64,000 nucleotides of DNA, taken from the NCBI GenBank assembly GCA_965221865.1, contig OZ244918.1, positions 2,664,696 to 2,728,695 of the forward strand, in the 5' to 3' direction. This stretch comes from Candidatus Poriferisocius sp. Its GTDB lineage: Bacteria; Actinomycetota; Acidimicrobiia; Acidimicrobiales; Bin134. The notes under the pieces were generated by a model. The model was not told the origin of the DNA. It saw nothing but the letters and a program-made list of their open reading frames with translations, and searched no databases. How positions within the stretch are numbered: position 1 is the first letter of the stretch; each line of letters opens with the position of its first letter. Both the position numbers and the translations under genes were made by a program. Positions 20,327 through 53,477 of this stretch are shown here, in pieces.

Positions 20327-20351
20327 ACTCTTAACCTGCGCTTCTTTTTGC

Positions 20352-20753: not shown

Positions 20754-20760
20754 AGCTCCA

Positions 20761-20961: not shown

Positions 20962-21045
20962 TGGAATTGTTCTCCTAGTAGATATTGGGGTGTTGGATAC
21001 GGGGCAAGTTGCCCAAAAGCCTTTGTAGAAATTAAAAATCAAGTG

Positions 21046-24873: not shown

Positions 24874-26288
24874 AGTGTTACTTGCTGAGTTAAATATCCG
24901 TCTGCTTCACGGAACCAAGAAAGGTCTTCATCTACAACGTGTGTGTATGTATCTCCTTTTTCAGAGGTGTATTTAATGAGCAGCTGCCATTTCCAGAAAC
25001 CTTGGCGGGGTATAAACCAACGGCAACGGTCGTGCTTAGCGGTCCATCTGCTATCTAAAGACAGCGTCTTTAGCGAAGGTTGTGTCCAGTTTGGTAACGA
25101 GTTGGGTTTACACCAAACGGTGGCTGGGTCATTTCTAGAAAAAGCGTTACGGTACCACTGTTTATGTTGTGGACTCAGGCTGAGCCAGAGCGAGGCTGCT
25201 TGCTGGGCGTAGGCAGCAGCAGCCACATTGCCTGGATTTTGCAGCTTGCGTAGGTCTGGGTATTGATGGGGGAGTAGCTCCCGCAAGCTAACTCCTACAT
25301 GTGTTGCTTGCCATAAACATCCGTTGCTTGAAGCATCTACTATGTTCAGGTTGGCTCCAGACCGAAGTGCTACCCAATGTCGTGCTACCTTTGATGGGCT
25401 TGACGCTGCAGTAAGAAACTGGCGCCCACCTGGCACCTCAGGATGATGAGGTGACGTTAGGGTACTCTGATAGGGAACGATTGACTCCCAGCGCAATGCT
25501 TGTTGTAGATTTTGGGTTTTTGAGCTATTCCAAGAGGTTGTGCAAACCTTGATGGGCGCTTTTGGGGTGTGAGGAGTATTTGGTGGGTTGACTACATGAG
25601 GATTTTTTGGGCGCTTTTCCCAAGGGCAGTTGTTAGGTATGGTATCGGCTAAACAAGATGGCACACACCTGCCGTTGGCACATGGGTTAAAAGTTTTCCA
25701 ATCAATCTTAGGCGGTTTGGGTTTTGGGCTAGGTTTTGGACTAGGCGGCAGAACCACACTTGGTGAAGTGGGGGTGGAAGTAGGTTGTGGCACAGGCTTG
25801 GTTTGAGGTTTTGGAGTGGAAGTTGCCGTGGGCAGGTGTAGGTGGAATACCTTGACACCCTTTGTGCCACGCCAGCGATAGTTGATGTTGCGGTGCCCCT
25901 TCCAAATAGTCCAGCTGCCCGGTCCGAGTGATTTTGGAGTGCTGCTGTGAGGCCCGTGACCGCAATTGTTGCTGCTACGACACGAACTGGTAGACGAACG
26001 CGAGGTAATAACAATCCCACACAAGTCTAAGAGCATGATAGTGCAGTGGGCAGGTATTCGCGCTGTGTAATGAGTCCAGTAGTTGATATGCGTCCAACTA
26101 ACTGAGCAGTTCAACACATTCGCAGGACACGATTTGCCTGTTCCGCTAACCGATACGAGCTTAATTTTGGTGTGAGCTATAGCCTCATGTGCTGTTGGGG
26201 CTACCACTGCTAACCCAACTACTGGTATTGTCACAATTAACAAAGCAATGGCTAGGCGTACCGCTGCTGGTTTCAACCACGCACTCAT
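24867..26288 (-). CDS. exported Pro-rich hypothetical protein
   Basis: 473 aa with an N-terminal TM/signal segment and a PKPQTKPVPQPTSTPTSPSVVLPPSPKPSPKPKPP linker. It overlaps the cpaB start by 7 nt. Confidence 0.6.
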   Translation of the reverse strand: MSAWLKPAAVRLAIALLIVTIPVVGLAVVAPTAHEAIAHTKIKLVSVSGTGKSCPANVLNCSVSWTHINYWTHYTARIPAHCTIMLLDLCGIVITSRSSTSSCRSSNNCGHGPHSSTPKSLGPGSWTIWKGHRNINYRWRGTKGVKVFHLHLPTATSTPKPQTKPVPQPTSTPTSPSVVLPPSPKPSPKPKPPKIDWKTFNPCANGRCVPSCLADTIPNNCPWEKRPKNPHVVNPPNTPHTPKAPIKVCTTSWNSSKTQNLQQALRWESIVPYQSTLTSPHHPEVPGGRQFLTAASSPSKVARHWVALRSGANLNIVDASSNGCLWQATHVGVSLRELLPHQYPDLRKLQNPGNVAAAAYAQQAASLWLSLSPQHKQWYRNAFSRNDPATVWCKPNSLPNWTQPSLKTLSLDSRWTAKHDRCRWFIPRQGFWKWQLLIKYTSEKGDTYTHVVDEDLSWFREADGYLTQQVTLW

Positions 26289-27346
26289 GGCTGTGCCTCA
26301 AAAGCCCTGTAGTCGCAGCCAACTGCGAGATGGTCAGGGGGTCGGGTGTCTAAGCCAACTTGACGGGCCCACACATAACCCAAAAACGCATGAAAGCAAG
26401 CATGTGGACTATCTGGCAGGTCTAGTTCTAAGTTTTCTTGTGCGTGTGCTTGGATTATTTCTAGTAGAGGTTCCCAGCAAGACGGTAGAGAGGCGTTAAC
26501 TTCTACACTGTTAGATGAAGCATCAGCCATGGCTTGTGGGTAAGCTGCGTTGGGGTTGTTCGCAACTAGCTCTAAGCACTGTAACTTAAGCCAACCAGAG
26601 GTGTGTACGCGGGCAGGGTCATACCCGCGAGAGGCACAAATGGCTAAAGGTCTTGCAGCGTCATCTGCATGTAATGAATGATGCATAACAGAGTTTGCGA
26701 TGCAAGCCAAGCCTGCATCGCTCCACCAGTATCTAGCCACAAGTTCGGTTAGATGCGCTAAACCGCCTAAGCATGAGTACAACCCCTGAGCTGCTAAAAA
26801 TCCTTTGAGTGCATCAGAAGGTTCCACGGCGACACTCAGGTGGTAGCGGATGCATTCTTGAAGCCATAAACGGCTGCTAGCAGTATCTTCTATGGTGCCA
26901 TCTTGATGTCCAAGCTGCTGGCGCAGGGTTTCTAGTGCTCTGTGGCTTGCAGGAACTTTGCGGACAACAGGTAGGGCTTGGTTATCCCAAGCCAGCACAT
27001 CATTGCCAAACATAAAGAAAGGACTATCTTGGGTTGCTTGTTGAACTTCGGCGATGTCAGGCTTGGTGGTTTTTGTTATAGGTGAAGAGGTTACAACTGC
27101 GTTTTGTGAAACTTTGACTGCTTGATCTTTAGGATTATCAAGTTCTAGTGCTGTTTCGTGTGTGACAGGTGGTTCATCCGGCAGAAGCTCTAAGCGATCT
27201 TGTTGTGCATTGATTAGCAGGGGCGTAGAGGTTTGCGTAACCGTCTCGGCAGTTAACTTAACAGCGGCTGATTGAGTGGAGCCGCACCCCGTAGCACAAG
27301 CAGACAAGATCGCAAACAAGCACACAAAAATGCGGGTAATGCCCAT
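26285..27346 (-). CDS. lipoprotein, hypothetical
   Basis: 353 aa with signal peptide plus lipobox FAILSAC. It overlaps the next gene by 4 nt and is the first gene after the candidate promoter. Confidence 0.6.
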   Translation of the reverse strand: MGITRIFVCLFAILSACATGCGSTQSAAVKLTAETVTQTSTPLLINAQQDRLELLPDEPPVTHETALELDNPKDQAVKVSQNAVVTSSPITKTTKPDIAEVQQATQDSPFFMFGNDVLAWDNQALPVVRKVPASHRALETLRQQLGHQDGTIEDTASSRLWLQECIRYHLSVAVEPSDALKGFLAAQGLYSCLGGLAHLTELVARYWWSDAGLACIANSVMHHSLHADDAARPLAICASRGYDPARVHTSGWLKLQCLELVANNPNAAYPQAMADASSNSVEVNASLPSCWEPLLEIIQAHAQENLELDLPDSPHACFHAFLGYVWARQVGLDTRPPDHLAVGCDYRAFEAQP

Positions 27347-27415
27347 GAGTCCCTCTTGGCGTGATTCTAAACAGGGGCCTCAAGGCCGATACGCATGGCT
27401 TAAGCCAGCAATTTC

Positions 27416-27444
27416 ACTTTACAAGATTAGTTTTCAGGTGTCAA
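27416..27444 (-). promoter_or_regulatory. candidate sigma70-type promoter for the Tad-associated operon
   Basis: On the minus strand, TTGACA, a 17-nt spacer, then TAAAGT. It lies in an AT-rich intergenic region about 70 nt upstream of the ATG at 27346. Confidence 0.4.
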
Positions 27445-27504
27445 TAGATTATTTTAAGATATTTTGAGTTTTATAAAATATGTGTCATGCATCAGATTTT
27501 AATG

Positions 27505-27987
27505 TCAACCCAATTTCAGGTTATCTGGCTTACACGCCCACTGTGACCATGCCTCTTGTTCTGTGACATCCTCGTAATAGCGGATGAATTTAGCGGCGCG
27601 CAGGTTGGTAGCAGGGTCGTGTAAATCTACGGGTTGCCCATTGTGGCCTGGAAACCGCCATTTTTCAACATCCCAGCCTGTTAGCCACCCCTCATTGATC
27701 TGCATCAAACCAATCGATTCCTGACCCCATTCTTCCATGTTACGCTGAGAAGGGTCACCATAAGATTCACACTGTATAACAGCAAGAACATCGTTTACTT
27801 CACCTGCGGGAAAGGTCTCCTCCACGAGCGCCCGCCACCGCTCCACCGAGGGGGCGAAGATGCTTTGGGAAGAAGCTCCAATAAGGGTGAAGGAACTCAA
27901 CAGTAGTGCTGAGATGCTAAACAGTGTTAAAAAGATCTTTCTTAATGGCATAAAGATAGATGAGCTATTTAGGGAGAGGGCTTTCAA
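27505..27987 (-). CDS. secreted lytic transglycosylase (SLT domain)
   Basis: 160 aa with a signal peptide. The catalytic CES motif (VIQCESYGDP) and GLMQIN motif are typical of family-1 lytic transglycosylases. Confidence 0.7.
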   Translation of the reverse strand: MKALSLNSSSIFMPLRKIFLTLFSISALLLSSFTLIGASSQSIFAPSVERWRALVEETFPAGEVNDVLAVIQCESYGDPSQRNMEEWGQESIGLMQINEGWLTGWDVEKWRFPGHNGQPVDLHDPATNLRAAKFIRYYEDVTEQEAWSQWACKPDNLKLG

Positions 27988-28296: not shown

Positions 28297-28374
28297 TATC
28301 TAACCTCTCACACACCACACCGTCTCCCCCATAAATCTCGAAACCAACCCCACTGAACAAAGAGCGGCAAGTGA

Positions 28375-28704
28375 TCAGTTACCCCTTGCTTGTGGGTCTT
28401 CAACGTCTGTTTCAGACGGCAAAGGGCAAAGCGCCTGCCGCGCGCTAGCAGCAGAACCGTTGTACTTGGAAGGCCAGTATGCAACCCATTTCCCGTTAGG
28501 GGTGTTGCGGTGTTCATCACATTCTAAGTAGCTCAGGTTTTCCCAACCTTGCTCATCAATTGGGATGGGATGGTCACCGCTAGTACTCAATTGCCCGCCT
28601 ACGCCGAGGCGCGACACCGAACCAGCACCACAACCGGTAACACATAGCAACACCAACAAGCACACAAGACCACCTATACGGTACTTGTTATGTGAAATCA
28701 CCAC
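28375..28704 (-). CDS. lipoprotein, hypothetical (last gene of the vWA/tubulin-like operon)
   Basis: 109 aa with lipobox LLCVTGC. It overlaps the upstream gene by 7 nt. Confidence 0.55.
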   Translation of the reverse strand: MVISHNKYRIGGLVCLLVLLCVTGCGAGSVSRLGVGGQLSTSGDHPIPIDEQGWENLSYLECDEHRNTPNGKWVAYWPSKYNGSAASARQALCPLPSETDVEDPQARGN

Positions 28705-29381
28705 ACCTCCCCGCAGCGCACAAACAAACGTCGCAAGTTCTCAGCACCGCTCTTTTTACCTAAATGAAACTTTATGGTAATAGGTGGGCTTGAGTTTTCG
28801 GGGAAAGTGATTATTGCATCTACAGTAGCGGAATCTGACAAAGCATGTCGTTTAAGTTCAGTGCTGAACCTGTTTAGCGCGTACAAGTTGCCTGCTTGCG
28901 TTTCAATGCTTCTTCCAATAAAAGGCCAGATACCGCCTTCGCTATCTTTATCTACCACCATAGGGATGGGGCGAGATTGTTCTTTCTCATCCTTGCTGAA
29001 TACTAATTCAACTGCTTCCCATCTAATTGGAGGCCATGCCTTTAGGATGAGATTTGATGGTACTAAAGTCACTTCTATTTCCCCATCACCATCATTGTTC
29101 CTATCTCTGCAAATAACATCTAAACGGCTTGGCACCCACAGATTGTTATGCTGTTCATCTGCTAACCTGCGTTCCTGCCAGTTGAAAGCGTAATTGTGTG
29201 CCGCATAATACACTCCGCCTTCTGCCACATCATCACCATCAATAGTAGGGAAGCTCATAATAGGAGCAGAACGTAACTGCCAGTTATTGTGGTCGGGAAC
29301 AGCCTCAGGCCAATCGCTAGCACACCCTGTGGCTAACAAAGCTAAACAGGTAAACATTCGCAATATTTTGGGCAATCTCAT
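28698..29381 (-). CDS. lipoprotein, hypothetical
   Basis: 227 aa with lipobox LLATGC. It overlaps the upstream gene by 4 nt. Confidence 0.6.
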   Translation of the reverse strand: MRLPKILRMFTCLALLATGCASDWPEAVPDHNNWQLRSAPIMSFPTIDGDDVAEGGVYYAAHNYAFNWQERRLADEQHNNLWVPSRLDVICRDRNNDGDGEIEVTLVPSNLILKAWPPIRWEAVELVFSKDEKEQSRPIPMVVDKDSEGGIWPFIGRSIETQAGNLYALNRFSTELKRHALSDSATVDAIITFPENSSPPITIKFHLGKKSGAENLRRLFVRCGEVW

Positions 29382-32212
29382 ACGTAATCTATTTCTTCAG
29401 CAAAATTACTAAATTGTTCTTGATTGGAGTGAGGCTGCAGGTGATATGTAGCTAAAGATTGCGGTGCCACAACATTGGTAATATGCAGTTCCCATTGAAA
29501 CATGGTTAGCATCTCACCGTCAGCGCTTTCAGCTGATTGTGTATCTACAGAGACAGTGGCAGCAAGACCAGGCCGTGCAGCTGTTGGCACTGTGATTCTG
29601 CTTAGATCAAATGAATGATCTACCACACGTGAATTCAAAAGAACCTCAGCATTTGGCCACCAGCCCATACGTCCTCCATATGGGGTTACAGAGGTTAGGT
29701 TTTTGGTGTGTGCTGCCATAGCATCTGTTGCAACTTCTTTTAAGCGTTTTTCCACCCAATCTTGTGCAACCGTAACACCATGTTCGTTGCTTTCCACAAA
29801 TTTAACCCAATCAGTGCGAGCACCAAAAACGGTGCCTTTTCCTTGTCGGTGACGGTGCTGTACTGTTTCGTAGGCAGAGGTGTCTTGTTCGGGTAATTCA
29901 AAACCTGAAACTATTTTATATTGGTAGGCACTTTTCCATGCTTTTTTAATTTCGTGATGTAGTTCGGTTAGCCACCCTGTAGTAAAAATTTGCGCGAGTT
30001 TTTCTCGATCTTCTTCTGAAACTTCGTTGGTCAGAGATGCTGATCCAAGCAACATGCCAGCAGGCAGAGTAACACTGTCAATCCAGCTCAAGTCAGGTTC
30101 TTTGCTTGTAGCGTCTTTTGTTAAATCTCCAAATGGTTCGTGAAGTAGGCGCGCGATTACTCTTTGATGATCAGCAAACTGTCTAACTAACACAGCCATA
30201 CGCAAAAACTCACTAGCGTAATGTAGTAATTGAGCGTCATTATTTTTGCGCTGATAGTTAGCTAGTTCAAGGGCATCCACAGCAGTAATAAAGTTCTTGT
30301 AGATTGATGTGATTTGCAGGAGTGCTATTGCTACTAAGATCAGCACACCGAAAACCACAAGCGGTACTAATGGGAAAGATGTAGGAGGATACAACCTTAA
30401 AGGTGCATTACCTCCAAACAGTGTCTGCCAAATAGTGTTAATAATAGAAAACCGCTGATCTAAAATAAAAAATAAACCTATAAGCAAACTAGCGGCTGTG
30501 ATAACAGCAAAACGGCGAGCATCTCTTTGTGCTTTGATTGCTACATCATATTTTTCTGCTTCATCGTTTTTAAGACAAGCATGCTTGCAGAAATTATCAA
30601 TCACCTCTGCAACTGCATCTTGCAAAGTTTGCTGAAGCCGTAGCACAAACTGTCCGCTTTGGGTGTTTGCGGTTTGAAACTCCTTGTGCTCCGTTTTAGG
30701 TTCTTGGTCTGCAGGTTTAGTTTCTTGTTTGTCAGCGCTTTTTGGGGTCTCAGAGCTTGTAGCATCAGGTGGAGGAAATCTAGAGGTTTTAGGCACATCA
30801 TTGGGTATAGACTTTTTAGGTTGTTCTTCGTTTATAGTCTGTTCGCTAGAAGCGGAGGCTTCCGTGCTTGCAGGTGCGAGAGATTTAGGTTTATTGATTG
30901 GGAATTTGAATCTATATGCATAGCTTTTGGGGGCTTTTTCATTGCTGTTTGTGAGGGAGCTTGCAGTATTTGGAGGAATAATTTTGTGGGTATCTAGCCA
31001 AACAAGCTGAGAACTATTTTGACCTTGAGGTCGTTCAACGCCGTGAGGCAGTTGCCCGCCATCTACCAAGCTAAAACATGTTTGATACAAAGCTTCCCAC
31101 GATTTAGGTGTTGGTTTCTCGGCTTCTGCAGCCACATCCCCGTGTATATCCACACCGCTTTCAATTAAAGCAGCTTCCATCGCTTCTATGCCGCCTGTTT
31201 CGATGAGGTAGCGAATATGTGCTTGCATTGCTTGTTCTCTGGCTACGTAATCAACAGATATATCTTCGGTTTCCGTGTTGGGATCTTGGAACCCTGTGGC
31301 AGTTAATAAACCCCACATAGCCTTCTCGGTATCTGATTGAACAGCAGCAGTAGGCACCGGTTCCCAAAATTTGATGTTGGCAGATTTAAATGGTGGTGAG
31401 GGTTTAGGCGCGTGACAAATAAGCTCCATAACATGAGCGGTTTCAACAGCAACCTGTTTTGGCGGGACTGAGGTAAATGTTGCTGCTTCTGAATTACCTC
31501 CATGTGGAAGAGGCCATGGTGTTGACTGGGGGATAACACCACTTCTTGCTCCGTAGTCTGTGTGTGTTGAACAAATTACCCGCATAGACGCATGGCAAAA
31601 CCTCACCCCCATAATTCCGGCATCATGAGGGGTGATTTCCGTGAACCCTTCTGAAGGGCAATTCCAACCTCCAACAGCGCTCAGCCCTGCTAACAACGCT
31701 TGTGCTAGTGCTGCATCTGATTTCGCATCAAGTGTTTGCGACTGCTGCGAACCAGAGGAGGCAGCACGCCCATCACACACCAAATGAAAATCCCAATACG
31801 AACTAAAAGGTGCATCTCCAGCAGAACCTTCAGGTAGCGCTGGTGCCACCGTAGCTAGACGTAAAGAGTTGCGTAAGCCGGTTGGAAGGACGTTTTGAAT
31901 AGCCTGCAATGCGTAGTCTTCATCTGCGTACTGCTCAGCGGTCATCCCGTAAGGGCGCAGGGACAGCACTGACATTGCTGTAACTTCTTGCTCATTGAAT
32001 ACGGTGCTCAGTGATTGAGTGTGATCACTTTTGCAATGCCATGCTTGAGCTTCGCCTTGTTGCTCACTAGCCTTTCTAAAATCAGTGATAGCGGTGCGTT
32101 GCAAAATACCTAACTTGGCGCACACTCGCAAAAAATCTACTGCTGCTTGAGTGGTTTCTGGCAAAGTAAGCACAAGAACAAACCTGCCAGCGCGCTCAGG
32201 CGACATACTCAT
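29378..32212 (-). CDS. 944-aa hairpin-anchored membrane protein, no recognisable domain
   Basis: Two TM helices at about residues 568-584 and 614-634. KAQRDARR precedes the first helix, which suggests N-in topology. Large domains flank the hairpin. A P/S/E/K-rich linker spans about residues 420-515. 4-nt overlaps on both sides. Confidence 0.7.
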   Translation of the reverse strand: MSMSPERAGRFVLVLTLPETTQAAVDFLRVCAKLGILQRTAITDFRKASEQQGEAQAWHCKSDHTQSLSTVFNEQEVTAMSVLSLRPYGMTAEQYADEDYALQAIQNVLPTGLRNSLRLATVAPALPEGSAGDAPFSSYWDFHLVCDGRAASSGSQQSQTLDAKSDAALAQALLAGLSAVGGWNCPSEGFTEITPHDAGIMGVRFCHASMRVICSTHTDYGARSGVIPQSTPWPLPHGGNSEAATFTSVPPKQVAVETAHVMELICHAPKPSPPFKSANIKFWEPVPTAAVQSDTEKAMWGLLTATGFQDPNTETEDISVDYVAREQAMQAHIRYLIETGGIEAMEAALIESGVDIHGDVAAEAEKPTPKSWEALYQTCFSLVDGGQLPHGVERPQGQNSSQLVWLDTHKIIPPNTASSLTNSNEKAPKSYAYRFKFPINKPKSLAPASTEASASSEQTINEEQPKKSIPNDVPKTSRFPPPDATSSETPKSADKQETKPADQEPKTEHKEFQTANTQSGQFVLRLQQTLQDAVAEVIDNFCKHACLKNDEAEKYDVAIKAQRDARRFAVITAASLLIGLFFILDQRFSIINTIWQTLFGGNAPLRLYPPTSFPLVPLVVFGVLILVAIALLQITSIYKNFITAVDALELANYQRKNNDAQLLHYASEFLRMAVLVRQFADHQRVIARLLHEPFGDLTKDATSKEPDLSWIDSVTLPAGMLLGSASLTNEVSEEDREKLAQIFTTGWLTELHHEIKKAWKSAYQYKIVSGFELPEQDTSAYETVQHRHRQGKGTVFGARTDWVKFVESNEHGVTVAQDWVEKRLKEVATDAMAAHTKNLTSVTPYGGRMGWWPNAEVLLNSRVVDHSFDLSRITVPTAARPGLAATVSVDTQSAESADGEMLTMFQWELHITNVVAPQSLATYHLQPHSNQEQFSNFAEEIDYV

Positions 32213-35200
32213 ACTTCGTCTGCTTCTATGTAGTCAGACTTAAGTGATTCAATGAGTTGTTCGTAAACGGGGATATATAAAACTGCTAGCTCACCTGTCA
32301 GCACACCTTTTTCAGGTGAACCGGTTCTGTCGCGTGGTATGAGTTTTGACGAAATTTGATCGCCACATCGCTTGAAACGATCAATCTGTTCTTTTAGATA
32401 TTGCTCAGCAGATGCGATGCGGTCATCTTTGTTGGTACCAGCAATTTTAGGGTCACATAACGGTTGAAACGAATTGTGATGGCCAGCTTCAAGGTTTTTG
32501 CGAAGCACATCAGATACCGGGTTGGTGATATGCGTGGAACCTATATTGTGGAGAATCTTATATGAGTGTAAGCGGCGTTCTTGTTCCTCGCTGTTTGCGG
32601 CACCGTAACACAAAGCCAAACTTTCAAGTAGTGCGGCTAAGATGTCGGCAGGAATAGGTGGTTGGGTTAGCAACGGCCACGGAAACTCGGCTGTAGAGCG
32701 CCCATCAGGTGAAACAATTTTGCAAGCCCGATCAACCTCAGCGGTCATCAAACCACATAACCGTGCTATAGCAAAGCCACGGATAATGTTCTCTAGGGGT
32801 TCACGGGGTAACGGCACAAAAGCATCCAAGGGTCGCGAACGTCGCCACTGCCAGAAAACCGATGATAGTGTGTCCCCGCTATTTAACACCTCATCTGCTA
32901 TAGGTTCAGTTAGCGAACGTACTGTGAGTGGATGCACGGGCACTTCAAAATAACTAGTCAACATTACCGATGGCATGTCTTTGAGCGCAGGTGACCACTG
33001 TTTTCCCATTTCCCCAATCACATCATTTACAACACCAGCAGCAGGATCACCGTCTTTGAAGGGAAAGGCTTGTTTAATAAAATTGATACGTGGGGGATGG
33101 TTGTCAGCTAGGCACATCATTGGACTGCTTTTCTGCTTAGCCATATACAGATTCTGACGGAACCTTCGCAGCCTTTCTGTGTAATCTACACGATTTTGCT
33201 GAGTATGTGGGTCGACCTGTGATAGGTAGGCAGCAAGCCCCTCTCCCACATATCTGCGATAACTACTACCAGCCCTGTTAGCCCACATCCTAAAGGATTC
33301 CAACCATCGCTCTGCGCTAGCATCGCATTCCAAGGTGGCATATTGCCCTGGTGACCAACTAGAACCACTCTTAGGGCGTAACAATGAGGGTATTTCATCT
33401 AAAAGCCCATTTGGGTGTCCCGCCACCATCAAATATCTGACAGGATCAATTGGCAGATTACCGCATTGCACCCCAGGCTCATTGGCTTCATTGCATAGCT
33501 CCGCTAGCTGTTCCATCCACTGGTCGTGACTCTCTAATGGCAGTTCTATAGCTGATGGATGATATTTCACTGATATTCCAGACTCGCTAGGTTCAGGCCA
33601 TTCAGACACAGGTTCTGTATCTAACTCTTCTAGAAGTGCCTTACCAGTGCTGTTCAACAAACGAAATATCTCCTCCAAAACCTCTTTTTGAGCGTGTTTG
33701 ACAAGGTCGGCAGCAATATTGAGTTGATTAGCTCCCCAGTTGTAAGCTAGCCCCACTGACATTTTGTCTAGTGCATCATCTAAAGATGCATTACCTGGTG
33801 CTAGGTTGCCAGAGGCATATCCAATTTGTTGCAATCCACCATCTACATTGTCATTATACTCGTGCATGTATCTTCTAGCTTTTTCTGCTAAGTTATTCAC
33901 GTGCTTTTGTGCTATAGACATAGCACCTTCTATAGCGCTTACAGCGACTGGTAAAGATGACCATGCTGCTATTTCAGAAACAGCACGACAAGTGTCGAAA
34001 ACTAGTTTTTTACGCCATTCGGTGGCTTCTTGAGCATCAAACAAACGGGCAAAATCGTCTTTGATTTTAGTGGCCTTGTTTTTGACCTGATCTCGCATTG
34101 CTGAAGCGGGCATCGCCTGACTACCAACACCTTCTTTAAGCTGCCCTAATGCTTCAGCACGACGATCCGCCAAGTCCTTCTTACTAGCAAAAAAATCTTC
34201 AACAGCAGCTAAACCACCCCCAGAATCGTTTGCGCGTACTTCAGCTGAAAACACTGCTTGCGCCCGTTCTGAACCTAACTGCTCAACCCAATCTTCATCT
34301 GTGAGTTTAGGGTCCCGTGTCACGCTGAGCCGCAAATGCCCGTTAAGCAACATGCCCATAGCTGTGCGCGCTAATTTATGTTCTGCCCATCGGTTGAAAC
34401 GGTCTCGGCCAACAGAAACCTTAGATACCCCAAATGAAGACAAAACACCGTCTTGACTGTCTTCAGCAAACGGATACCCACCACCAAGCGAGGTAGCTTT
34501 TTGGCTGGAGGCAGCCTGCCAGTTAGCAACAAGAAAGTTGGTAATCTCTTCTTGCACCACATCAGACGTAACCCAAGTTGATAGTGCATCACCTACTGCT
34601 AAATACACTTCAGAAGTTGACTGAAAGCTGGACCCGCCTTGTTGTTCTCGTCCGATCAAAAAAATTGAATGCGGGCCTGTGCCGCGGGTGTTCACAGTGC
34701 GCGGCACCAAAGGTAAATCGTTAAATTGTCCTTCGCGACTCCAGTAAGCAGCGAGCATCTCGCTAATAAATGCAAGCGAGTTAGCAGCCAAACCACTCTT
34801 ATTGTCCATCTCAAATATGTCATTAGACAACAACGCCAGCACGGGATGAGCGCCTGCTGGGTCGATTGCTCGCAACAAAGTGACCACATCAAGCGCCACT
34901 CCTGCCCCTGTCCCACCGCCGATGGATGAACACACTAGCACTAAAGGTTCTTGCAATCCACGTTCCGAATCTGCTGCCACTGCACAGCCAAGATGGCGTG
35001 CCACCGCGTCTAAGCTGTGCTGTGCGCCACGTATTGTTTGAAAAGCGTTACGCAACATATCGTCCACAGAACTGTGAAAAGTATTTAACGCTGCAGCCCT
35101 ACCAATAGCACGGCTTGAGCCGGCACCTTTAGCTAAAGGCACTCTGGCACGTTCAGGATCGGGTATCCACCCGCTGAGATCGCTAGCACGAATCTTGCCT

Positions 35201-35469
35201 CCAGCATCTTGTTGTGCCTCTAGCGACCTATACAAATCAGGGTAAGTGCGGTGTTTGCTGCTTATCGATATGTAGTCGTCAGCAGGTAGTGGTGGGATTT
35301 CAGAAGCGGCTTCTTGTGTAATAGGGGTGTCTATCCCCAAAAAACGCCAGCATTCAGGAATACCAAGCTCCCACTCAACTTCTAGCAAACGCTTATGTAC
35401 AGCTTCGCGTATGTGACGTACTACTTTGGTGCCACTTCCGCCGCACCCCACCATTAGGACTGGCTGCAT
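32209..35469 (-). CDS. giant tubulin/FtsZ-superfamily GTPase-like protein
   Basis: 1086 aa with no signal peptide. It has three motifs in FtsZ order: T1-like VGCGGSGTK (aa 7-15), T3-like KGAGSSRAIGRAAA (aa 114-127; compare FtsZ GLGAGxNPxxGrxAA), and T4 signature SSIGGGTGAG (aa 181-190; compare GGGTG[ST]G). A helical extension of about 730 aa follows. Confidence 0.7.
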   Translation of the reverse strand: MQPVLMVGCGGSGTKVVRHIREAVHKRLLEVEWELGIPECWRFLGIDTPITQEAASEIPPLPADDYISISSKHRTYPDLYRSLEAQQDAGGKIRASDLSGWIPDPERARVPLAKGAGSSRAIGRAAALNTFHSSVDDMLRNAFQTIRGAQHSLDAVARHLGCAVAADSERGLQEPLVLVCSSIGGGTGAGVALDVVTLLRAIDPAGAHPVLALLSNDIFEMDNKSGLAANSLAFISEMLAAYWSREGQFNDLPLVPRTVNTRGTGPHSIFLIGREQQGGSSFQSTSEVYLAVGDALSTWVTSDVVQEEITNFLVANWQAASSQKATSLGGGYPFAEDSQDGVLSSFGVSKVSVGRDRFNRWAEHKLARTAMGMLLNGHLRLSVTRDPKLTDEDWVEQLGSERAQAVFSAEVRANDSGGGLAAVEDFFASKKDLADRRAEALGQLKEGVGSQAMPASAMRDQVKNKATKIKDDFARLFDAQEATEWRKKLVFDTCRAVSEIAAWSSLPVAVSAIEGAMSIAQKHVNNLAEKARRYMHEYNDNVDGGLQQIGYASGNLAPGNASLDDALDKMSVGLAYNWGANQLNIAADLVKHAQKEVLEEIFRLLNSTGKALLEELDTEPVSEWPEPSESGISVKYHPSAIELPLESHDQWMEQLAELCNEANEPGVQCGNLPIDPVRYLMVAGHPNGLLDEIPSLLRPKSGSSWSPGQYATLECDASAERWLESFRMWANRAGSSYRRYVGEGLAAYLSQVDPHTQQNRVDYTERLRRFRQNLYMAKQKSSPMMCLADNHPPRINFIKQAFPFKDGDPAAGVVNDVIGEMGKQWSPALKDMPSVMLTSYFEVPVHPLTVRSLTEPIADEVLNSGDTLSSVFWQWRRSRPLDAFVPLPREPLENIIRGFAIARLCGLMTAEVDRACKIVSPDGRSTAEFPWPLLTQPPIPADILAALLESLALCYGAANSEEQERRLHSYKILHNIGSTHITNPVSDVLRKNLEAGHHNSFQPLCDPKIAGTNKDDRIASAEQYLKEQIDRFKRCGDQISSKLIPRDRTGSPEKGVLTGELAVLYIPVYEQLIESLKSDYIEADEV

Positions 35470-35503
35470 TCGGATATCTGCCTTTCTCCTACTTAAAACA
35501 GGA

Positions 35504-38500
35504 TTAATCTGCTAAAGGATCGTTGGACCACGGATCGTAGTCTGCTAAAGCGTCATTGCTAAACGGATCTGTGGTTGTAGGCGCGGGCTCTGAAAGGGTT
35601 TCTGCTAAAGGATCAGAATCCGTGCCCTTGGGTTCTGCCTGGCTGCTATTGCTACCGCTATTGCTATTGCTGGCGCTAGCATTTTCGGTGTTTTCAGCTT
35701 GGATAGCGTCATATATTAACACAGCCCTATTTTTGGCATCAGCAATATAGTCGGCACGGTCATTTGCTGCTTCTTCAGGCGGTATATCCCAAATAACTAC
35801 TTTTGGAATATCGTCTTTATCCGACACGGCTACCCACTTGTCTGATAGCCGATCTCCAAGCACGGCTACAAGCCTGCCACCTCGCTTTACACGTCTGCCT
35901 TCAGACCAGCAGTCGCCTGTTTGCGATGTTGCGGTAGCAACAATGTTAGGAGCGATTCCTGCTAGAGGGCGTAGCCATGAGGTACGTAAACGAACTAAGC
36001 CCATGTGAGCTTGAGTAGCGCGTTTCACCAACGCGGCGCAAACACCTGGTTCTGCTGCTTGAGGTGAGTCAACAAGCGGCACCACAACATACTCTGGTAA
36101 ACCTATAGGTACCCATCGTCTCCGCCAAACCCCTAAAGCAGCCACCGTGAGCAACAGAACCCCAAGCAACACTAAAAATAACGGCCAAGGGTTACCAGGG
36201 AATGGGATTACTACAGATGCCTGACCTGAAGTTAACGGTGCTGTTTGGTTATTAGCTAGCAAGCGCTCTAGCTGATCGCGGTGATCTTGTGAAGCTTCTT
36301 CATGCCATCGAATATCGTCTAAATGCTTGCGTAAAGCAGTGAAATCAGCATTAACTGTAACCGTCGCGGCTACAGATATATCTTCAACACCTTGTGATTC
36401 GATCTCTAAAGAATCGCAACCCAAGCGCCCTTGCCCCACTGGAGTAGGTGGCCAACCACCCTGTGATGAGCACTCCCACCTATCTTCTCCTAATACGATG
36501 AGAGATGACCCTTTTTGAGGAATGGTTATAATGCCATTAGCAAGATGCGCAGACCAATCACCGCCACCTGCTCCGCCTGATAAACGCAAACGCACATCTA
36601 CATTACGTGTAGCACCGTTGGGAGGCTGTAAACCTGTGACTATTTCTAACTTATTGGGTAGCAGCCGTCCACCACTAGCTTCTACATTTTTCATCCACTC
36701 AACTACTTTTTGGCGGCCTTGACACGCGCTCACATCTTTTCCGAACTTGTTGGCATCTGATCGATCTCTAGCATTTTTAAAAGCTGATGTGATTGGCACC
36801 GGAGGAGATATAGGTCTGCGCCATTGTCTTAGTTCTGGACTTGGACCGTAACTAAATGATTGAATGATTGTGGGTTGAAGCACCACATCTTGCCCGTTGT
36901 CTATAATTTGACTGATATTACCGCCCCCTTGAACACTGCAATCTGGGCTGGTGGGTTTTGTTCGTGGTTTGAGTTCAGCGTCTCTACGAATAAGCGTCCC
37001 TATCATATCTTTAACAGAAAAATCTCCATTTTCTGTGTTAACAGGGATTGGGTCAACAGATATGTCCCCTGTATCGTTTGACCATGTTGGATAGATTAGT
37101 TCAGCTTTTTCTGTCGTCGGTTCAAAAATAGCAGGCGCGAAATGTAAAGAATCACCCTTATTAGAGATTGCAGCGCTCACACTTTTGGGAACATCCACAT
37201 AGCCCACGAGATCGCCCTCACTGTTGATTTCTGCATCCCGAAGCTTAGGTGACTCAGATGATACACGCTTCACCGCAGCAGCTATCTGAGATGCTTCTTG
37301 GCGCCCACGCGAGGTTGTGCCCCAAAACACTACTTTCCATGTTCCCTCCCATTGTGCAGTGTCTGGAAAAGCTGCGCGATGTCCAATCACTTCTTGGCGA
37401 CTGTCATAGGGGCGGAAAACCCAAAAGTTGAAAGGCTGCACATTAACCCATCCCGACTCGTCGGCGTCGGCTGAGCGCACTTGCTCCGATCTTTGCCCAT
37501 CAGGAGAGATAAGTTCAAACCCGATCTCTTTGGGATACAAAATACCGCGCCTTAACTCGGTTTTGTCTATGTACAAGCGAAAAGCATCCACACCTTCATC
37601 TAAAGAAAACGAGTAAATGCATTCATCCGCTACTTGATTAACCTCACACATTGTATATTCTTGCTCGGGCGGTGCAGCGTCTGTTCCGCACTTCTCGCCT
37701 GGCAACTGCCCCTCACAAACCGAAGATGCGATGTGTTCGCCAATAATCTCGTCTAGCTGGCCAGCTAAATCGCTAATGTTTTCATAAGGCTTGTAGCTAC
37801 CGCGCAATGGAACAGGACATGGGTTTGTGCTATCTGCGCCATACAGTCGCTGTAAATGCTCTAACACAATTGCACCAGGTTGGCTTAGCACTGCAGATAA
37901 AACTATGACATTAGCATCTACTGTCATCTGGCTAACTTCAGGGTTACCTCCATCTGCGCCACACAGCTGATTAAGCACCAAGTTTTCAGCAGGCGTTAGC
38001 TCGCCCGGTTCTTCTGTGTCGTGCTCGCCATCTGTAAACCAAACCAACACATTGCAACTAGAGCGTTGTGATTGTTGAAACCTTTGAGCTGCACCTTCTA
38101 AAGCACGCTCATAATCAGTCCATGTAATAGTTGCCCCAATCTTGTCGCGTATTGCAGCGCTAGCAAGACTTCTATTTGCCTCTTCGGTGGTTGACCAGTT
38201 GATGTGTTGGAGGTACTCATCGCTGAACCCGTCTACAGCTACACGAATATCCACGTTGTCCCCATAATTTGTCGATAAGGTTAACAAAGTGGCCACAGAT
38301 CGCACAACCCCTGTAACCCTATGTTTATTGGGGTCGTTCCTTTGAAGACTTGAAGAAGCATCCACCAAAAAGAGTACGTTTACCGCAAACTCTCCATTTG
38401 CCAGAGCCTGACATTGTGAGGCTAAAACAGAGTTTTCGTTATCTTGAGGTTGGGCCACAGACACGCCAGCAAAGCAGGTAGATAAAACTGCGATGCCCAA

Positions 38501-38536
38501 AACTGAGCACACCAAACGAGATAACACTGTAATCAA
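35504..38536 (-). CDS. exported, single-pass transmembrane von Willebrand factor A (vWA) protein
   Basis: 1010 aa with a signal peptide (..FAGVSVAQPQ). MIDAS motifs are VLFLVDASSSL and WFTDGEHD. A TM helix lies at about residues 784-804 and is followed by RRRW. The cytoplasmic tail of about 202 aa ends in acidic DPLA-type repeats. Confidence 0.8.
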   Translation of the reverse strand: MITVLSRLVCSVLGIAVLSTCFAGVSVAQPQDNENSVLASQCQALANGEFAVNVLFLVDASSSLQRNDPNKHRVTGVVRSVATLLTLSTNYGDNVDIRVAVDGFSDEYLQHINWSTTEEANRSLASAAIRDKIGATITWTDYERALEGAAQRFQQSQRSSCNVLVWFTDGEHDTEEPGELTPAENLVLNQLCGADGGNPEVSQMTVDANVIVLSAVLSQPGAIVLEHLQRLYGADSTNPCPVPLRGSYKPYENISDLAGQLDEIIGEHIASSVCEGQLPGEKCGTDAAPPEQEYTMCEVNQVADECIYSFSLDEGVDAFRLYIDKTELRRGILYPKEIGFELISPDGQRSEQVRSADADESGWVNVQPFNFWVFRPYDSRQEVIGHRAAFPDTAQWEGTWKVVFWGTTSRGRQEASQIAAAVKRVSSESPKLRDAEINSEGDLVGYVDVPKSVSAAISNKGDSLHFAPAIFEPTTEKAELIYPTWSNDTGDISVDPIPVNTENGDFSVKDMIGTLIRRDAELKPRTKPTSPDCSVQGGGNISQIIDNGQDVVLQPTIIQSFSYGPSPELRQWRRPISPPVPITSAFKNARDRSDANKFGKDVSACQGRQKVVEWMKNVEASGGRLLPNKLEIVTGLQPPNGATRNVDVRLRLSGGAGGGDWSAHLANGIITIPQKGSSLIVLGEDRWECSSQGGWPPTPVGQGRLGCDSLEIESQGVEDISVAATVTVNADFTALRKHLDDIRWHEEASQDHRDQLERLLANNQTAPLTSGQASVVIPFPGNPWPLFLVLLGVLLLTVAALGVWRRRWVPIGLPEYVVVPLVDSPQAAEPGVCAALVKRATQAHMGLVRLRTSWLRPLAGIAPNIVATATSQTGDCWSEGRRVKRGGRLVAVLGDRLSDKWVAVSDKDDIPKVVIWDIPPEEAANDRADYIADAKNRAVLIYDAIQAENTENASASNSNSGSNSSQAEPKGTDSDPLAETLSEPAPTTTDPFSNDALADYDPWSNDPLAD

Positions 38537-38886
38537 ACTGCCACCAGCAAACTAGCAGCAGACCATGCCAGCAATCCTGCTGCTAGCAACGTTGCCCAAC
38601 TATATATAAGCCTAAGAACATGCGGAGAAGAAGCGTTGTGCTGTCTTTTACCTTGTATCTGAGCTGTAGCAGCGGTTACATGCAGCCCCCAGCACACACA
38701 AAAACAAGCTAGCACCACGCCAAAACTGTTAGACATCAAACCAACGATCACAGCAACAATGAGACTCCCGCCAAGTATCACTTTGCCAAATCCCCGCAAA
38801 GAAACACGGCTAGGCTTTATTGGCGCTGAAGATGTGTGTGCCTGCGCCCACCGATCACCTGAAGATTGTGCTAGAGGATCAGGCAT
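38533..38886 (-). CDS. small three-TM membrane protein (first long gene of the operon)
   Basis: 117 aa with three hydrophobic helices and an N-terminal MPDPLAQ. It overlaps the vWA gene by 4 nt. Confidence 0.55.
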   Translation of the reverse strand: MPDPLAQSSGDRWAQAHTSSAPIKPSRVSLRGFGKVILGGSLIVAVIVGLMSNSFGVVLACFCVCWGLHVTAATAQIQGKRQHNASSPHVLRLIYSWATLLAAGLLAWSAASLLVAV

Positions 38887-38889
38887 CGA

Positions 38890-38937
38890 TCAATCACTAC
38901 TTTTGCTTTCTCCTAGTACCTTTTGTTTTTCGTCCAT
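38890..38937 (-). CDS. candidate 15-codon leader micro-ORF
   Basis: Read by hand as MDEKQKVLGESKSSD, with GAAAGGAGAAG immediately upstream of its ATG. Its stop is 3 nt before the ATG at 38886, and that ATG has no SD of its own. Confidence 0.25.
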   Translation of the reverse strand: MDEKQKVLGESKSSD

Positions 38938-39024: not shown

Positions 39025-39030
39025 ATTATA
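39025..39030 (-). promoter_or_regulatory. candidate -10 element for the vWA/tubulin-like operon
   Basis: A perfect TATAAT on the minus strand in the AT-rich 287-bp intergenic region, about 90 nt upstream of the micro-ORF. No convincing -35. Confidence 0.3.
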
Positions 39031-39173: not shown

Positions 39174-42100
39174 TTAGTCGTTGTCTTTGATGGTGATGAT
39201 GGCCTGCCCGTCGCCGATCTCCACACTCTTAGGATCTGACAACATGATCTGGAACTTCTCATTGGACTCTTTAATAAAATCATCCCTCACATAAACACCC
39301 AAATGCGCCCTAGTGAAGCCCGGACGGAACCTTAACGTCCCACCTCGCCCACCAAAATCATCGCCAATAGAGGCAAACTCAGTCCCACTGCCAATAGCTT
39401 TAGTCACCCATCTCACGGTCACTAAATGATCCACCGGCTTGCTTAGCACAGCAACAAAATTATGCCAACCACCCCAACCATCACCCTCACCGACAACCTG
39501 ATCAGCGATCACCACTGTCGCCGCATCCACAGCTGGTGTTGGCGGGTTGTCGTCGTCTGTGATGTTTACGGTTGCGGAGGCTGCGGTGGAGTCTACGTCG
39601 TAGGTTGCGCCGTCGGTGATTGTTGTGGTGACTGAACCGTCGGTTTCGTCGGTGGTGTCACCGGTGGTTGATACTGTGAGGGTGGCTGTGCCGCTGGTGG
39701 GAATGGTGACGGTGCGGTTGCCGGTGGTGACGCCGAAGCTACCTGATGCGGTTACGTTCACTGTTACAGTAAGTGAACTTAACGGCGTAGGACTCGCGGT
39801 GAGAGTGAACGACGCCGCACTGCCTTCAGTCACATCGCTGCCTGCAGTGATACTCACCACCGGTGTTGGCGGGTTGTCGTCGTCTGTGATGTTGACGGTT
39901 GCTGAGGCTGCGGTGGAGTCTACGTCGTAGGTTGCGCCGTCGGTGATTGTTGTGGTGACTGAACCGTCGGTTTCGTCGGTGGTGTCACCGGTGGTTGATA
40001 CTGTGAGGGTGGCTGTGCCGCTGGTGGGAATGGTGACGGTGCGGTTGCCGGTGGTGACGCCGAAGCTACCTGATGCGGTTACGTTCACTGTTACAGTAAG
40101 TGAACTTGACGGCGTAGGACTCGCGGTGAGAGTGAACGACGCCGCACTGCCTTCAGTCACATCGCTGCCTGCAGTGATACTCACCACCGGTGTTGGCGGG
40201 TTGTCGTCGTCTGTGATGTTGACGGTTGCTGAGGCTGCGGTGGAGTCTACGTCGTAGGTTGCGCCGTCGGTGATTGTTGCGGTGACTGAACCGTCGGTTT
40301 CGTCGGTGGTGTCACCGGTGGTTGATACTGTGAGGGTGGCTGTGCCGCTGGTGGGAATGGTGACTGTACGGTTGCCGGTGGTGACGCCGAAGCTGCCGGA
40401 TGCGGTTACGTTCACTGTTACAGTAAGTGAACTTGACGGCGTAGGACTCGCGGTGAGAGTGAACGACGCCGCACTGCCTTCAGTCACATCGCTGCCTGCA
40501 GTGATACTCACCACCGGTGTTGGCGGGTTGTCGTCGTCTGTGATGTTGACGGTTGCTGAGGCTGCGGTGGAGTCTACGTCGTAGGTTGCGCCGTCGGTGA
40601 TTGTTGCGGTGACTGAACCGTCGGTTTCGTCGGTGGTGTCACCGGTGGTTGATACTGTGAGGGTGGCTGTGCCGCTGGTGGGAATGGTGACTGTACGGTT
40701 GCCGGTGGTGACGCCGAAGCTGCCGGATGCGGTTACGTTCACTGTTACAGTAAGTGAACTTGACGGCGTAGGACTCGCGGTGAGAGTGAACGACGCCGCA
40801 CTGCCTTCAGTCACATCGCTGCCTGCAGTGATACTCACCACCGGTGTTGTGGGGGAAGCACATAGCGCTTTTTCTTGTTCGATGCGTTCGAGTTCTTGGC
40901 GGACTGCTTGCCAGCCGTTCCAGATCTGTTCGGCTGCGGTTGCTTCTGTGGCTGTGAAGGGTTCAAGTGTGTCGGAGGTTTCGACCCCGAAAGCGATGAG
41001 GACGCGTAGCCAGTTATGGCTGTAGTCGGATCTGGTGCGGTTGGTTTCGTGGTAGCTTCTCACCAGGTCGACTAGATCGGTGCTGGTTGGAGTGACCGTG
41101 CAAACCGGTGGCGGTGTGGTGAGCGGAACGCGATCAGCGGACGGTATCAGCGTCAACGCTGTGATACCTGGATGATCTGCGGCGTATTTGTAAGCGCGGT
41201 ACACCCAAGTGTCGCTGGAGTTAGCGGGAGAGTCGCCTTTGGGTACAATCTCAGTTCCTCTGGCGAGTGGGGAAATGTAGTGCCAGACCACCGTCCCGTC
41301 AGATGTCACTTCGCTGATTCTGGCGTGGTTGCCCTCGGTGATGAGCGTATTGCCGTTGGGCAGTCGCTGAGCGTTCGACATGATCCAAGTGTGCTCAGCA
41401 AGGCGATGAGTCCACAAAAGAGTCGGCAGCATGAACCCCTTACCAGCCCGCAAGTAGGCATGGCCTGAGGAGGGGAAGGCCAGCTCATCTGCCGATGCGT
41501 AGTTGCGCAGGAACCCGGGATGCTCATGGCCATTGTTATAGATCAACACGTTCCCTGCGCCCTGCAACCCGCTGGGTATCCAATGGGCGTTGTGTGGGAA
41601 GAACAATCGCTGATCGATTTTGCTCCCGTTATCGTGGGTACGCGGGTTGCCGTAGCGGTAAAGCAGATTTCCGCCTTGGTTGCTATTGCCACCGGAACCG
41701 GTCGCCGCCTCCGTTGTGGTCGTGCTGTGGTCGATCACCCAGGCTTCGCTGAAGTGACGGGAGGTGATCAAAATCTGATCCAGAGAAGCATTGTAATCTA
41801 TGGAGTTAAGGTGCGTCAGATGGTGCGGATTTTGTAAAAATCCGTTGCTGCCGTCGCGTATCTGACATATCCCATAGTTGATATCGATAAGTTCGGGATG
41901 ATCAGCGATCGTGCCATAGTTGTCTTTGGTGGAGTCATGATCTTGAATCAGATGATCCCAGACGTTCCACTTCCAGACAACGGTCCCGCCGTTCGAGCCA
42001 GTGGGTTTGATCTCGATGATCGAGTCTACTTCCAACCCCTTAGTGCCGAGGCAGGAAGGGTCCGCGCCAGCGGCGATAGATTGTGCTCTTGTGTAATATT

Positions 42101-42848: not shown

Positions 42849-42999
42849 GACCAACTCCTTGCGATTGTGCTGAATCTGCAATCAATCTTACATGGTCTCT
42901 ACCCTTTTTTGTGCGAATTGTTCGTGTAAACAGCTTGCCACAGGGGAGGGGAGTGGCGGTTACAGTGTCACCACATGCACGCTATGCTCTCTGTTTCCT

Positions 43000-53472: not shown

Positions 53473-53477
53473 GTTGT

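Follow-up and report, generated by a model that had tools for sequence, protein, structure and literature searches.

A four-gene FtsZl1/vWA module in Candidatus Poriferisocius and a candidate docking peptide shared by two of its membrane proteins

A cluster of six genes on the minus strand of a 64,000-nt stretch of DNA from Candidatus Poriferisocius sp. (contig OZ244918.1; the whole stretch is called the window here) is near-certainly an FtsZl1/vWA module of the actinobacterial type. Its four-gene core encodes a small membrane protein with three transmembrane segments, a vWA protein with a MIDAS site, the tubulin/FtsZ-like GTPase FtsZl1, and a large membrane protein that is very probably the one termed 'B3'; two lineage-specific lipoprotein genes follow. 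We read this module as, most likely, a GTPase scaffold that is docked at the membrane and coupled to a MIDAS protein on the cell surface. We hold the docking and scaffold mechanism that we propose below to be about evenly balanced between right and wrong, and for identity and mechanism taken together we lean modestly towards this explanation.

The six genes occupy positions 38886 to 28375, and a scan for open reading frames (ORFs) reproduced all of the coordinates and lengths that an earlier note on this DNA had given, together with the overlaps and the gap that join them. There are three 4-nt overlaps, one 7-nt overlap and one 34-nt gap, and a GGAG Shine-Dalgarno sequence lies within the gap, ahead of the FtsZl1 gene. 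The ORFs are too long, and their homologues too numerous, for chance to be a concern. The genes given by the ORF scan, with the lipoboxes taken from the N-terminal sequences, are:

38533-38886, minus strand: gene for the 117-aa small membrane protein
35504-38536, minus strand: gene for the 1010-aa vWA protein, with a TTG start
32209-35469, minus strand: gene for the 1086-aa FtsZl1
29378-32212, minus strand: gene for the 944-aa protein (very probably 'B3')
28698-29381, minus strand: gene for a 227-aa lipoprotein, lipobox LATGC
28375-28704, minus strand: gene for a 109-aa lipoprotein, lipobox VTGC

Operons of this type were described by Makarova and Koonin (2010; PMC2875224), who defined FtsZl1 (equivalent to Pfam Tubulin_2) and found most of its members in predicted operons with a vWA gene and lineage-specific membrane proteins. 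The earlier note had pointed out that divergent FtsZ-like families were catalogued computationally in that study, and the operon type of the window is indeed listed there. In the supplement, the operon of C. glutamicum R (cgR_2628-2625) encodes B2 (204 aa), vWA (893 aa), FtsZl1 (1197 aa) and B3 (933 aa), and that of Xylanimonas cellulosilytica (Xcel_1380-1377) encodes proteins of 84, 918, 1118 and 1027 aa. The window has, in the same order, a small protein of 117 aa, a vWA protein of 1010 aa, FtsZl1 of 1086 aa and a large membrane protein of 944 aa. Besides gene order and comparable sizes, the window shares with these operons the Tubulin_2 match, the lack of an FtsZ/tubulin C-terminal domain and the signal peptide of the vWA protein; an adjacent vWA gene with a signal peptide and transmembrane helix, which is typical of the FtsZl1 family, is present. 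There are also differences. In C. glutamicum, B4-B6 and a GTPase come after B3, whereas the window lacks these genes and has instead the two extra lipoproteins, and it comes from Acidimicrobiia, a class that was unsampled in 2010. The 944-aa protein can be set beside cgR_2625 by length and position only. We nevertheless consider it very probably a B3 member, because the B3 profile matches a 933-aa Rhodococcus protein that has the same position and the length of cgR_2625.

The predicted structures divide FtsZl1 into three: a GTPase domain, a stalk of helices and, at the C terminus, a further domain of ~460 aa.

34354-35469, minus strand: N-terminal tubulin/FtsZ-like GTPase domain, residues 1-372 (Pfam, AlphaFold2, Foldseek)
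33610-34353, minus strand: helical stalk of long antiparallel helices, residues ~373-620 (DSSP of the model)
32212-33609, minus strand: C-terminal alpha/beta domain, residues ~621-1086 (separate confident model)

Residues 5-370 match Pfam Tubulin_2 (PF13809) at E 8.2e-40 and 137.6 bits (cut-off 27), and the match spans profile positions 1-354 of 356. An AlphaFold2 model built from 15 homologues (predicted local distance difference test score (pLDDT) 84, predicted template-modelling score 0.74) was compared with the PDB by Foldseek, and its best match was S. aureus FtsZ (E 4e-5), followed by H. volcanii CetZ2 and M. jannaschii FtsZ, and after these by tubulins; ~360 columns align, at target template-modelling scores of 0.45-0.52. 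The top 11 matches (E ≤ 0.001) are all FtsZ, CetZ or tubulin, and PhiKZ TubZ stands at rank 29 (E 0.023). Profile and structure searches alike therefore place residues 1-370 in the tubulin/FtsZ fold, to which the earlier note had assigned residues 1-350. The T1 (GCGGSG, residues 8-13), T3 (GAGSSRAIGR) and T4 (GGGTGAG, residues 184-190) motifs that it had recognized are all intact, and they are invariant or nearly so among 15-50 homologues; in hhalign, T3-T5 align with the motifs of E. coli FtsZ, for which an approximate query sequence was used.

The core helix H7 (residues 303-323) is followed in the model by a conserved loop (GGYPF..Q.GA.SSFG) and a single strand, after which DSSP shows long helices at residues 355-616. 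Makarova and Koonin (2010; PMC2875224) reported that FtsZl1 cannot be aligned reliably past H5, and the model agrees with this. Neither Pfam nor the AlphaFold2 model reveals an FtsZ_C/Tubulin_C domain. The claim that the protein is not FtsZ stands, as there is no FtsZ_C, T7 loop, FtsZ C-terminal peptide or dcw context; nor does its context resemble that of TubZ or BtubAB, as the earlier note had also argued, with no TubR/centromere and no paired BtubA/BtubB-bklc neighbours among the ORFs scanned. For the stalk, Foldseek yields only weak helical-bundle matches (prob<0.5). The C-terminal domain was modelled from 50 homologues at pLDDT 83, and Foldseek returned no structural relative of it from the PDB (best E 0.9) or the viral library BFVD. 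Sequence-profile searches of the PDB with the FtsZl1, B3 and vWA alignments gave nothing useful.

The vWA protein begins with a Sec-type signal peptide (residues 1-28), which is followed by the vWA/MIDAS domain, a cysteine-containing extracytoplasmic region of ~520 aa, one transmembrane helix (~784-806, then RRRW) and a cytoplasmic tail of ~204 aa. Hydropathy and the N-terminal sequence thus bear out an exported protein with one transmembrane helix and a cytoplasmic tail, as first proposed.

38009-38380, minus strand: vWA domain, residues 53-176 (Pfam VWA_2 5.6e-8, VWA 2e-6)
36119-36187, minus strand: single transmembrane helix, residues ~784-806 (hydropathy)

In an alignment of 27 vWA orthologues, the MIDAS residues D59-x-S61-x-S63, T140 and D169 are invariant, as are several cysteines of the exported part, which is consistent with an extracytoplasmic location. 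Pfam found only vWA families and no fn3 in these 27 proteins, although fast-evolving repeats could escape Pfam. One transmembrane helix and a cytoplasmic tail of 175-270 aa were seen in 36/36 orthologues examined.

The 117-aa protein has three hydrophobic segments and occupies the position of the 'B2' family. A small ORF with two or three transmembrane segments adjoins the start of the vWA gene in 33/39 loci, and jackhmmer recognizes 24 of these ORFs. At the other end of the core, the 944-aa protein lacks a signal peptide and is organized as follows:

Residues 1-~420: cytoplasmic N-domain
Residues ~421-520: low-complexity linker
30311-30517, minus strand: transmembrane hairpin, residues ~566-634, with RDARR ahead of it (hydropathy)
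Residues 635-944: cytoplasmic C-domain

This topology, a hairpin between two large cytoplasmic domains, is that of the earlier note, which had recognized no motif in the protein; no Pfam or PDB match was found, including with the sequence profile of the family against the PDB. Neither the 944-aa protein nor the two lipoproteins has a Pfam, NCBIfam or significant PADLOC match, and NCBIfam likewise returned nothing for the other three proteins of the operon. Pfam searches with 19 B3 orthologues gave a single weak Rv2743c match (5e-4), which we disregarded, and hhalign found no paralogy between B3 and FtsZl1. The family is a narrow one: an exhaustive phmmer search of 1.84 billion clusters found 78 representatives. 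Word-indexed protein searches with the 944-aa sequence or a 19-row profile returned only the query itself, probably because the low-complexity linker swamped the candidate list. In two divergent loci, L038 (13360-16149) and L046 (13318-16074), B3 is split at this linker into an N-domain gene and a gene for the hairpin and C-domain; L038 is the second FtsZl1 locus of one Aldehydirespiratoraceae genome and carries two tandem FtsZl1 paralogues (6295-13363). A sibling genome in the same 90%-identity cluster has the 944-aa protein (P0145) recorded at only 663 aa; the shorter length may reflect a truncation, a frameshift or another choice of start codon.

Both lipoproteins are lineage-specific additions and not part of the core. 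The 227-aa one lies directly after B3 in ~19 of the closer loci, and the 109-aa one covers no more than the initial ~100 residues of a lipoprotein that has 262-275 aa in relatives. The earlier note's pair of lipoproteins is thus sound as to the lipoboxes, which both have, and needs amending in that the second is a short version and neither is core.

Almost all full-length homologues of the GTPase (31-55% identity) are from metagenome-assembled genomes of Acidimicrobiia, many of them named as the sponge-associated genera Ca. Poriferisodalis, Poriferisocius and Aldehydirespirator. We compared 46 full-length FtsZl1 loci and three closer ones (L081-L083), which were fetched by protein identity. 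A vWA gene lies directly upstream of FtsZl1 in essentially all of these loci, and a homologue of the 944-aa protein lies directly downstream in most, with at least 38 detected by tblastn or profile search. Overall, synteny of vWA, FtsZl1 and B3 holds in ~45 loci of Acidimicrobiia and extends to a megaplasmid of Rhodococcus. The earlier note would have given up its operon had the genes not been co-conserved, and they are kept together in ~45 other genomes. Between the same pairs of genomes, vWA and B3 are 25-28% identical versus 39% for FtsZl1.

The megaplasmid, the 1.39-Mb plasmid NZ_CP113952.1 of Rhodococcus sp. JS3073 (L084), encodes proteins of 963, 1200 and 933 aa in the same order. The 1200-aa protein matches hidden Markov models (HMMs) of all FtsZl1 regions (N-terminal 1e-51, stalk 2e-9, C-terminal 4e-36), for the 933-aa protein the profile of the 944-aa family gives a match at E 2.6e-21, and the protein in the vWA position keeps the layout of signal peptide, transmembrane helix and tail, including a DPF-containing tail. 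Downstream of B3 lie GAP1-N2 (2e-18), GAP1-M (7e-8) and DO-GTPase2; the two GAP1 matches served as a positive control for our searches. The whole run (11057-27702) reads vWA, FtsZl1, B3, an 862-aa protein, a GAP1-N2/M protein, a 455-aa protein and DO-GTPase2.

FtsZl1 proteins of Streptomyces, Kitasatospora, Chloroflexota, Myxococcota, Bacteroidota and Firmicutes have the GTPase domain alone in common, and several of these distant loci keep a gene for a signal peptide-vWA-transmembrane protein directly upstream. The HMM of the stalk matches only Acidimicrobiia and Rhodococcus, and the stalk, the C-terminal domain and B3 co-occur, in the same lineages only.

The evidence that suggested a mechanism to us is a short peptide found in the cytoplasmic parts of two of the membrane proteins. 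The extreme C terminus of the vWA tails is acidic and carries [DN]P[FLW] motifs in the 36 orthologues; in the window there are four:

35507-35614, minus strand: acidic C-terminal end of the vWA tail with DPL975, DPF990, DPW1001 and DPL1006, the proposed docking peptides

The last 60 aa of the 36 orthologues contain 66 motifs, versus 3.6±1.8 in 1000 composition-preserving shuffles (max 11; ~18-fold), and a motif falls within the last 12 aa in 33/36. The small membrane proteins carry the same motif in their cytoplasmic N terminus, with 32 occurrences in the segment before the first transmembrane helix (n=33) versus 2.1±1.4 in 2000 shuffles (max 8; ~15-fold); it is present in 21/33 of these proteins, for example as MSSDPWGSDNDPFHDDD and MNIDPFAAANDPFAEDD, and the protein of the window has MPDPLAQ. 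The density of DP[FWL] per 100 aa is 3.06 at the vWA C terminus, 0.10 in the rest of the vWA protein, 0.11 in FtsZl1 and 0.06 in B3. The vWA tails cannot otherwise be aligned, yet the motif and its terminal position persist in them, and in Rhodococcus the tail ends SDPFDPF.... Distant FtsZl1 loci without B3 and the FtsZl1 C-terminal domain have short, motif-free vWA tails. Judged from sequence, the acidic DP[FWL] peptides of the vWA and small membrane proteins could be a docking site. Neither these motifs nor the three-part model of FtsZl1 is in the 2010 description of the operon type.

In the mechanism that we propose, the C terminus of the vWA tail and the N terminus of the small membrane protein would expose the same acidic DP[F/W/L] peptides to the cytoplasm, and these peptides, being multivalent, would recruit a cytoplasmic receptor to the membrane. 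That receptor would most likely be the FtsZl1 C-terminal domain or a cytoplasmic domain of B3, because both occur only in B3-bearing lineages, most of which carry the motifs. FtsZl1, with its head, stalk and C-terminal domain, would serve as a GTP-regulated scaffold that clusters or re-orients the complex, coupling the nucleotide state inside to the MIDAS domain and lipoproteins outside, or the reverse. The docking role of the motif, the identity of the receptor, GTP-dependent assembly and the direction of signalling are all steps that we infer.

Such an arrangement could be likened to an integrin tail on a cytoskeletal adaptor, or to FtsZ and its tether with the peptide on the opposite partner. 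Integrin beta has an extracellular MIDAS vWA-type domain, a single transmembrane helix and tail motifs that bind the cytoskeleton-linked adaptors talin and kindlin, with signalling in both directions. The likeness is an analogy only: there is no homology past the vWA fold, and the bacterial partner is a tubulin-superfamily GTPase and not an actin adaptor. FtsZ docks through a short acidic-plus-hydrophobic terminal peptide (D-[IV]-P-x-F) that ends a disordered linker, and its tethers FtsA, ZipA and SepF bring a tubulin-fold GTPase to the membrane, which is what we propose for FtsZl1. However, FtsZ carries the tether peptide itself, whereas in the window the peptide is on the membrane proteins and FtsZl1 ends ...SDYIEADEV.

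Several findings weigh against this mechanism. The AlphaFold2 model of FtsZl1 lacks the FtsZ-type C-terminal activation domain, and the NxDxxD T7 loop with its catalytic acidic pair was not found in the loop after H7; because both are absent, head-to-tail polymerization with GTPase activation is unsupported, and on this model canonical FtsZ-like polymerization is doubtful. The earlier note's 'potentially polymerising GTPase' accordingly keeps its tubulin/FtsZ fold, while the polymerization becomes uncertain. The motif counts overstate the number of independent events, because the orthologues are related, and the divergent loci L038 and L046 lack DP[FWL] motifs. In Mycobacteriales the triad of vWA, FtsZl1 and B3 is embedded in a DO-GTPase/GAP1-N2 operon, which hints at a missing regulatory layer, and in the window the cluster adjoins AbiE, HEPN and TraG genes.

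These last findings bear on a published alternative. Kaur et al. (2020; PMC7159879) place an actinobacterial tubulin with a C-terminal alpha-helical domain and a membrane-bound vWA protein within DO-GTPase systems of the GAP1-N2 type, and they take these to be immune-like conflict systems. Read in the way of Kaur, Burroughs, Iyer and Aravind (2020), the tubulin-like and vWA proteins would make up a variable arm, the sensor/effector, of an immunity-like system with GAP1-N2 and a DO-GTPase: the extracellular domains would sense an invader or the state of the cell wall, an FtsZl1 superstructure would be the response, and the arm would here act alone or with a DO-GTPase/GAP1 pair encoded elsewhere in the genome. 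The window shares this theme, a single tubulin with a C-terminal helical region alongside a membrane protein that has an extracellular vWA domain and a beta-rich region, and this is the exact actinobacterial pairing that Kaur et al. describe. The Rhodococcus homologue sits in such a system, with GAP1-N2, GAP1-M and DO-GTPase2 directly after B3. A conflict role would also fit the faster evolution of vWA and B3 compared with FtsZl1 and the company that some loci keep: two AbiEi/AbiEii pairs, an NTase-HEPN gene and a TraG-like gene flank the window's cluster, AbiEii, Mrr and ResIII flank L083, and GmrSD flanks L082. However, only ~10/150 flanking ORFs match defence models, which is a weak enrichment, most flanks are housekeeping genes with synteny kept within the family (NT5C, SDR, trp genes), and PADLOC 2.0 gave only sub-threshold matches for the core proteins, both to the 944-aa protein (KwaB 0.033, PD-T4-6 0.43). 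The core described by Kaur et al., namely DO-GTPase, GAP1 (N2/M/C) and recognizable FNIII-repeat proteins, was not found in the window or in the Acidimicrobiia loci. DO-GTPase and GAP1 had no Pfam match in the operon, the scanned neighbours or 150 flanking ORFs; phmmer searches with the Rhodococcus DO-GTPase/GAP1 proteins found nothing in the 64-kb window or the 49 loci (±10 kb); and Pfam found no fn3 match in any operon protein. The window's ORFs with a Walker-A motif are the proteasomal AAA ATPase (Pfam), a 275-aa likely ABC ATPase (motif only) and a 288-aa protein with a loose match and no Pfam family. Because its defining DO-GTPase/GAP1 core is absent from the window and these loci, the conflict interpretation loses ground; its role for the arm is itself a computational inference, and we consider it unlikely here, though worth taking seriously. 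For the same reason, the cluster in the window looks like a stand-alone four-gene form similar to that of Xylanimonas, plus lipoproteins.

Makarova and Koonin (2010; PMC2875224) had originally proposed for the FtsZl1 family a machine for membrane remodelling or vesicle formation, in which FtsZl1 polymerizes on the inner face of the membrane, is anchored by its partners and deforms or severs the membrane. All of the partners are membrane proteins, which favours this proposal, and a head with a helical stalk recalls large dynamin-like GTPases such as IniA and DynA/BDLP, which place a long stalk at the membrane, although the Foldseek matches of the stalk to IniA, Mgm1 and dynamin are weak (prob ≤0.2). 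Dynamin-like proteins have a P-loop fold in contrast to the tubulin/FtsZ fold of FtsZl1, in which no paddle or membrane-insertion element was identified. Moreover, FtsZl1 lacks the C-terminal activation/T7 domain of canonical FtsZ/tubulin protofilaments, there is no amphipathic or ESCRT-like partner, and the extracellular MIDAS domain and the lipoproteins are left unexplained. With nothing in its favour past membrane association, we regard remodelling as distinctly unlikely. A third possibility starts from the pilus genes of the Tad type that lie directly downstream on the same strand (27987-21046): on this view the vWA protein would, like TadG, anchor the pilus or serve as an adhesin, and the task of FtsZl1 would be to place the pilus machinery. 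Tad systems are reported to include vWA proteins such as TadG, and a T2SSE gene also lies near the module in L081, the closest relative. However, the two clusters are set apart by 387 bp that contain a hairpin, the window's Tad proteins have no tblastn match in the 46 full-length loci or L081-L083, and in all other genomes examined the FtsZl1 module is found without Tad genes. With no counterpart beside FtsZl1 elsewhere, the Tad genes are a separate locus; we rejected the link for lack of co-conservation, and consider it highly improbable.

The coupling of a docked GTPase scaffold to the surface MIDAS protein can be stated in a bolder form, which we offer tentatively and with considerable doubt: the triad would be an autonomous 'integrin-like' linkage, in which multivalent DPF-type motifs recruit a GTPase that assembles non-canonically through its stalk and C-terminal domain. 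If true, this link between the cell surface and a nucleotide-driven scaffold in the cytoplasm would be of a previously unrecognized kind in Actinomycetota, independent of the DO-GTPase/GAP1 core.

Within the tubulin/FtsZ superfamily no branch is more divergent than FtsZl1, for which no experimental function was found 15 years on, and in a phylogenetic paper of 2023 the group still figures as divergent proteins whose role is unknown. The two computational readings of it, membrane remodelling and an immune-like conflict system, are incompatible. We found no experimental study of any FtsZl1 system in a literature search that omits most subscription journals, and so no match to an experimentally characterized system of the kind that would have overturned the earlier note. 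Its phrase 'uncharacterised envelope-spanning system' holds, in its first word, as far as function goes, no functional study having been found; the partner set, on the other hand, was already listed in 2010 and discussed again in 2020. Because the triad of vWA, FtsZl1 and B3 survives stand-alone without the DO-GTPase/GAP1 core, it can be studied on its own. The DP[F/W/L] peptides on two membrane partners provide a concrete candidate interface that can be mutated or used as bait, and the domain map of FtsZl1 defines a protein with no canonical activation domain and with a large domain that has no relative of solved structure. Corynebacterium and Rhodococcus, which can be cultured and are genetically tractable, have the same module, and these predictions are testable there.

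Signals at the two ends of the operon are modest:

39025-39030, minus strand: perfect TATAAT lying 139 nt ahead of the first ATG, a candidate -10 element
28350-28367, minus strand: weak terminator-like hairpin with a 5-bp stem, 8 nt past the last stop (consensus match only)

A sigma-70 scan, which did not itself flag the TATAAT at 39030-39025, found no acceptable -35 element for it. The 287-bp upstream spacer was described earlier as AT-rich with a perfect TATAAT; the TATAAT is there, but AT-richness is confined to ~50 nt around it, and the GC content of the spacer as a whole is 46% versus 47% for the operon and 49% for the window. The annotated ATG of the 117-aa gene has no obvious Shine-Dalgarno sequence. 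In the same frame ahead of it (38890-38937, minus strand) lies a 15-codon ORF, MDEKQKVLGESKSSD, with a strong GGAG Shine-Dalgarno sequence, and only its TGA stop and one codon separate it from that ATG; it may represent translational coupling or a leader peptide.

Several other loci share the window. The Tad-type pilus locus (21046-27987, minus strand) encodes an SLT lysozyme-like protein, a lipoprotein, a 473-aa protein, a SAF/CpaB-like protein, a T2SSE ATPase and a T2SSF-type protein, and beside the T2SSF-type gene is a 271-aa ORF with no Pfam match. On the other side of the operon, a 1235-aa protein (39174-42881, minus strand) combines an arylsulfotransferase-like propeller with Calx-beta and is not kept beside FtsZl1 elsewhere. 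Its gene contains a 327-nt tandem repeat (39535-40849; 4.0 copies, 99% identity), which translates into near-identical 109-aa modules, and over this stretch GC is raised to 57% with a strong GC skew. The patch of mobile-element and defence genes begins ~6 kb upstream of the operon (45337-46808, 47096-48115, 48934-50571 and 52465-54326) and comprises the two AbiEi/AbiEii pairs, the NTase-HEPN gene and a TraG/VirD4-like coupling protein. A strand-composition anomaly at 50001-52000 (GC skew -0.28, AT skew +0.36) covers ORFs without a Pfam match. Finally, the plus strand carries at 1367-9867 and 12586-13443 a complete Pup-proteasome locus of the actinobacterial kind, by which the window can be recognized as part of an Actinomycetota chromosome, with the proteasomal AAA ATPase, two genes of the Pup-ligase family, two proteasome subunits and two WYL/PafBC-type regulators, followed by tatC.

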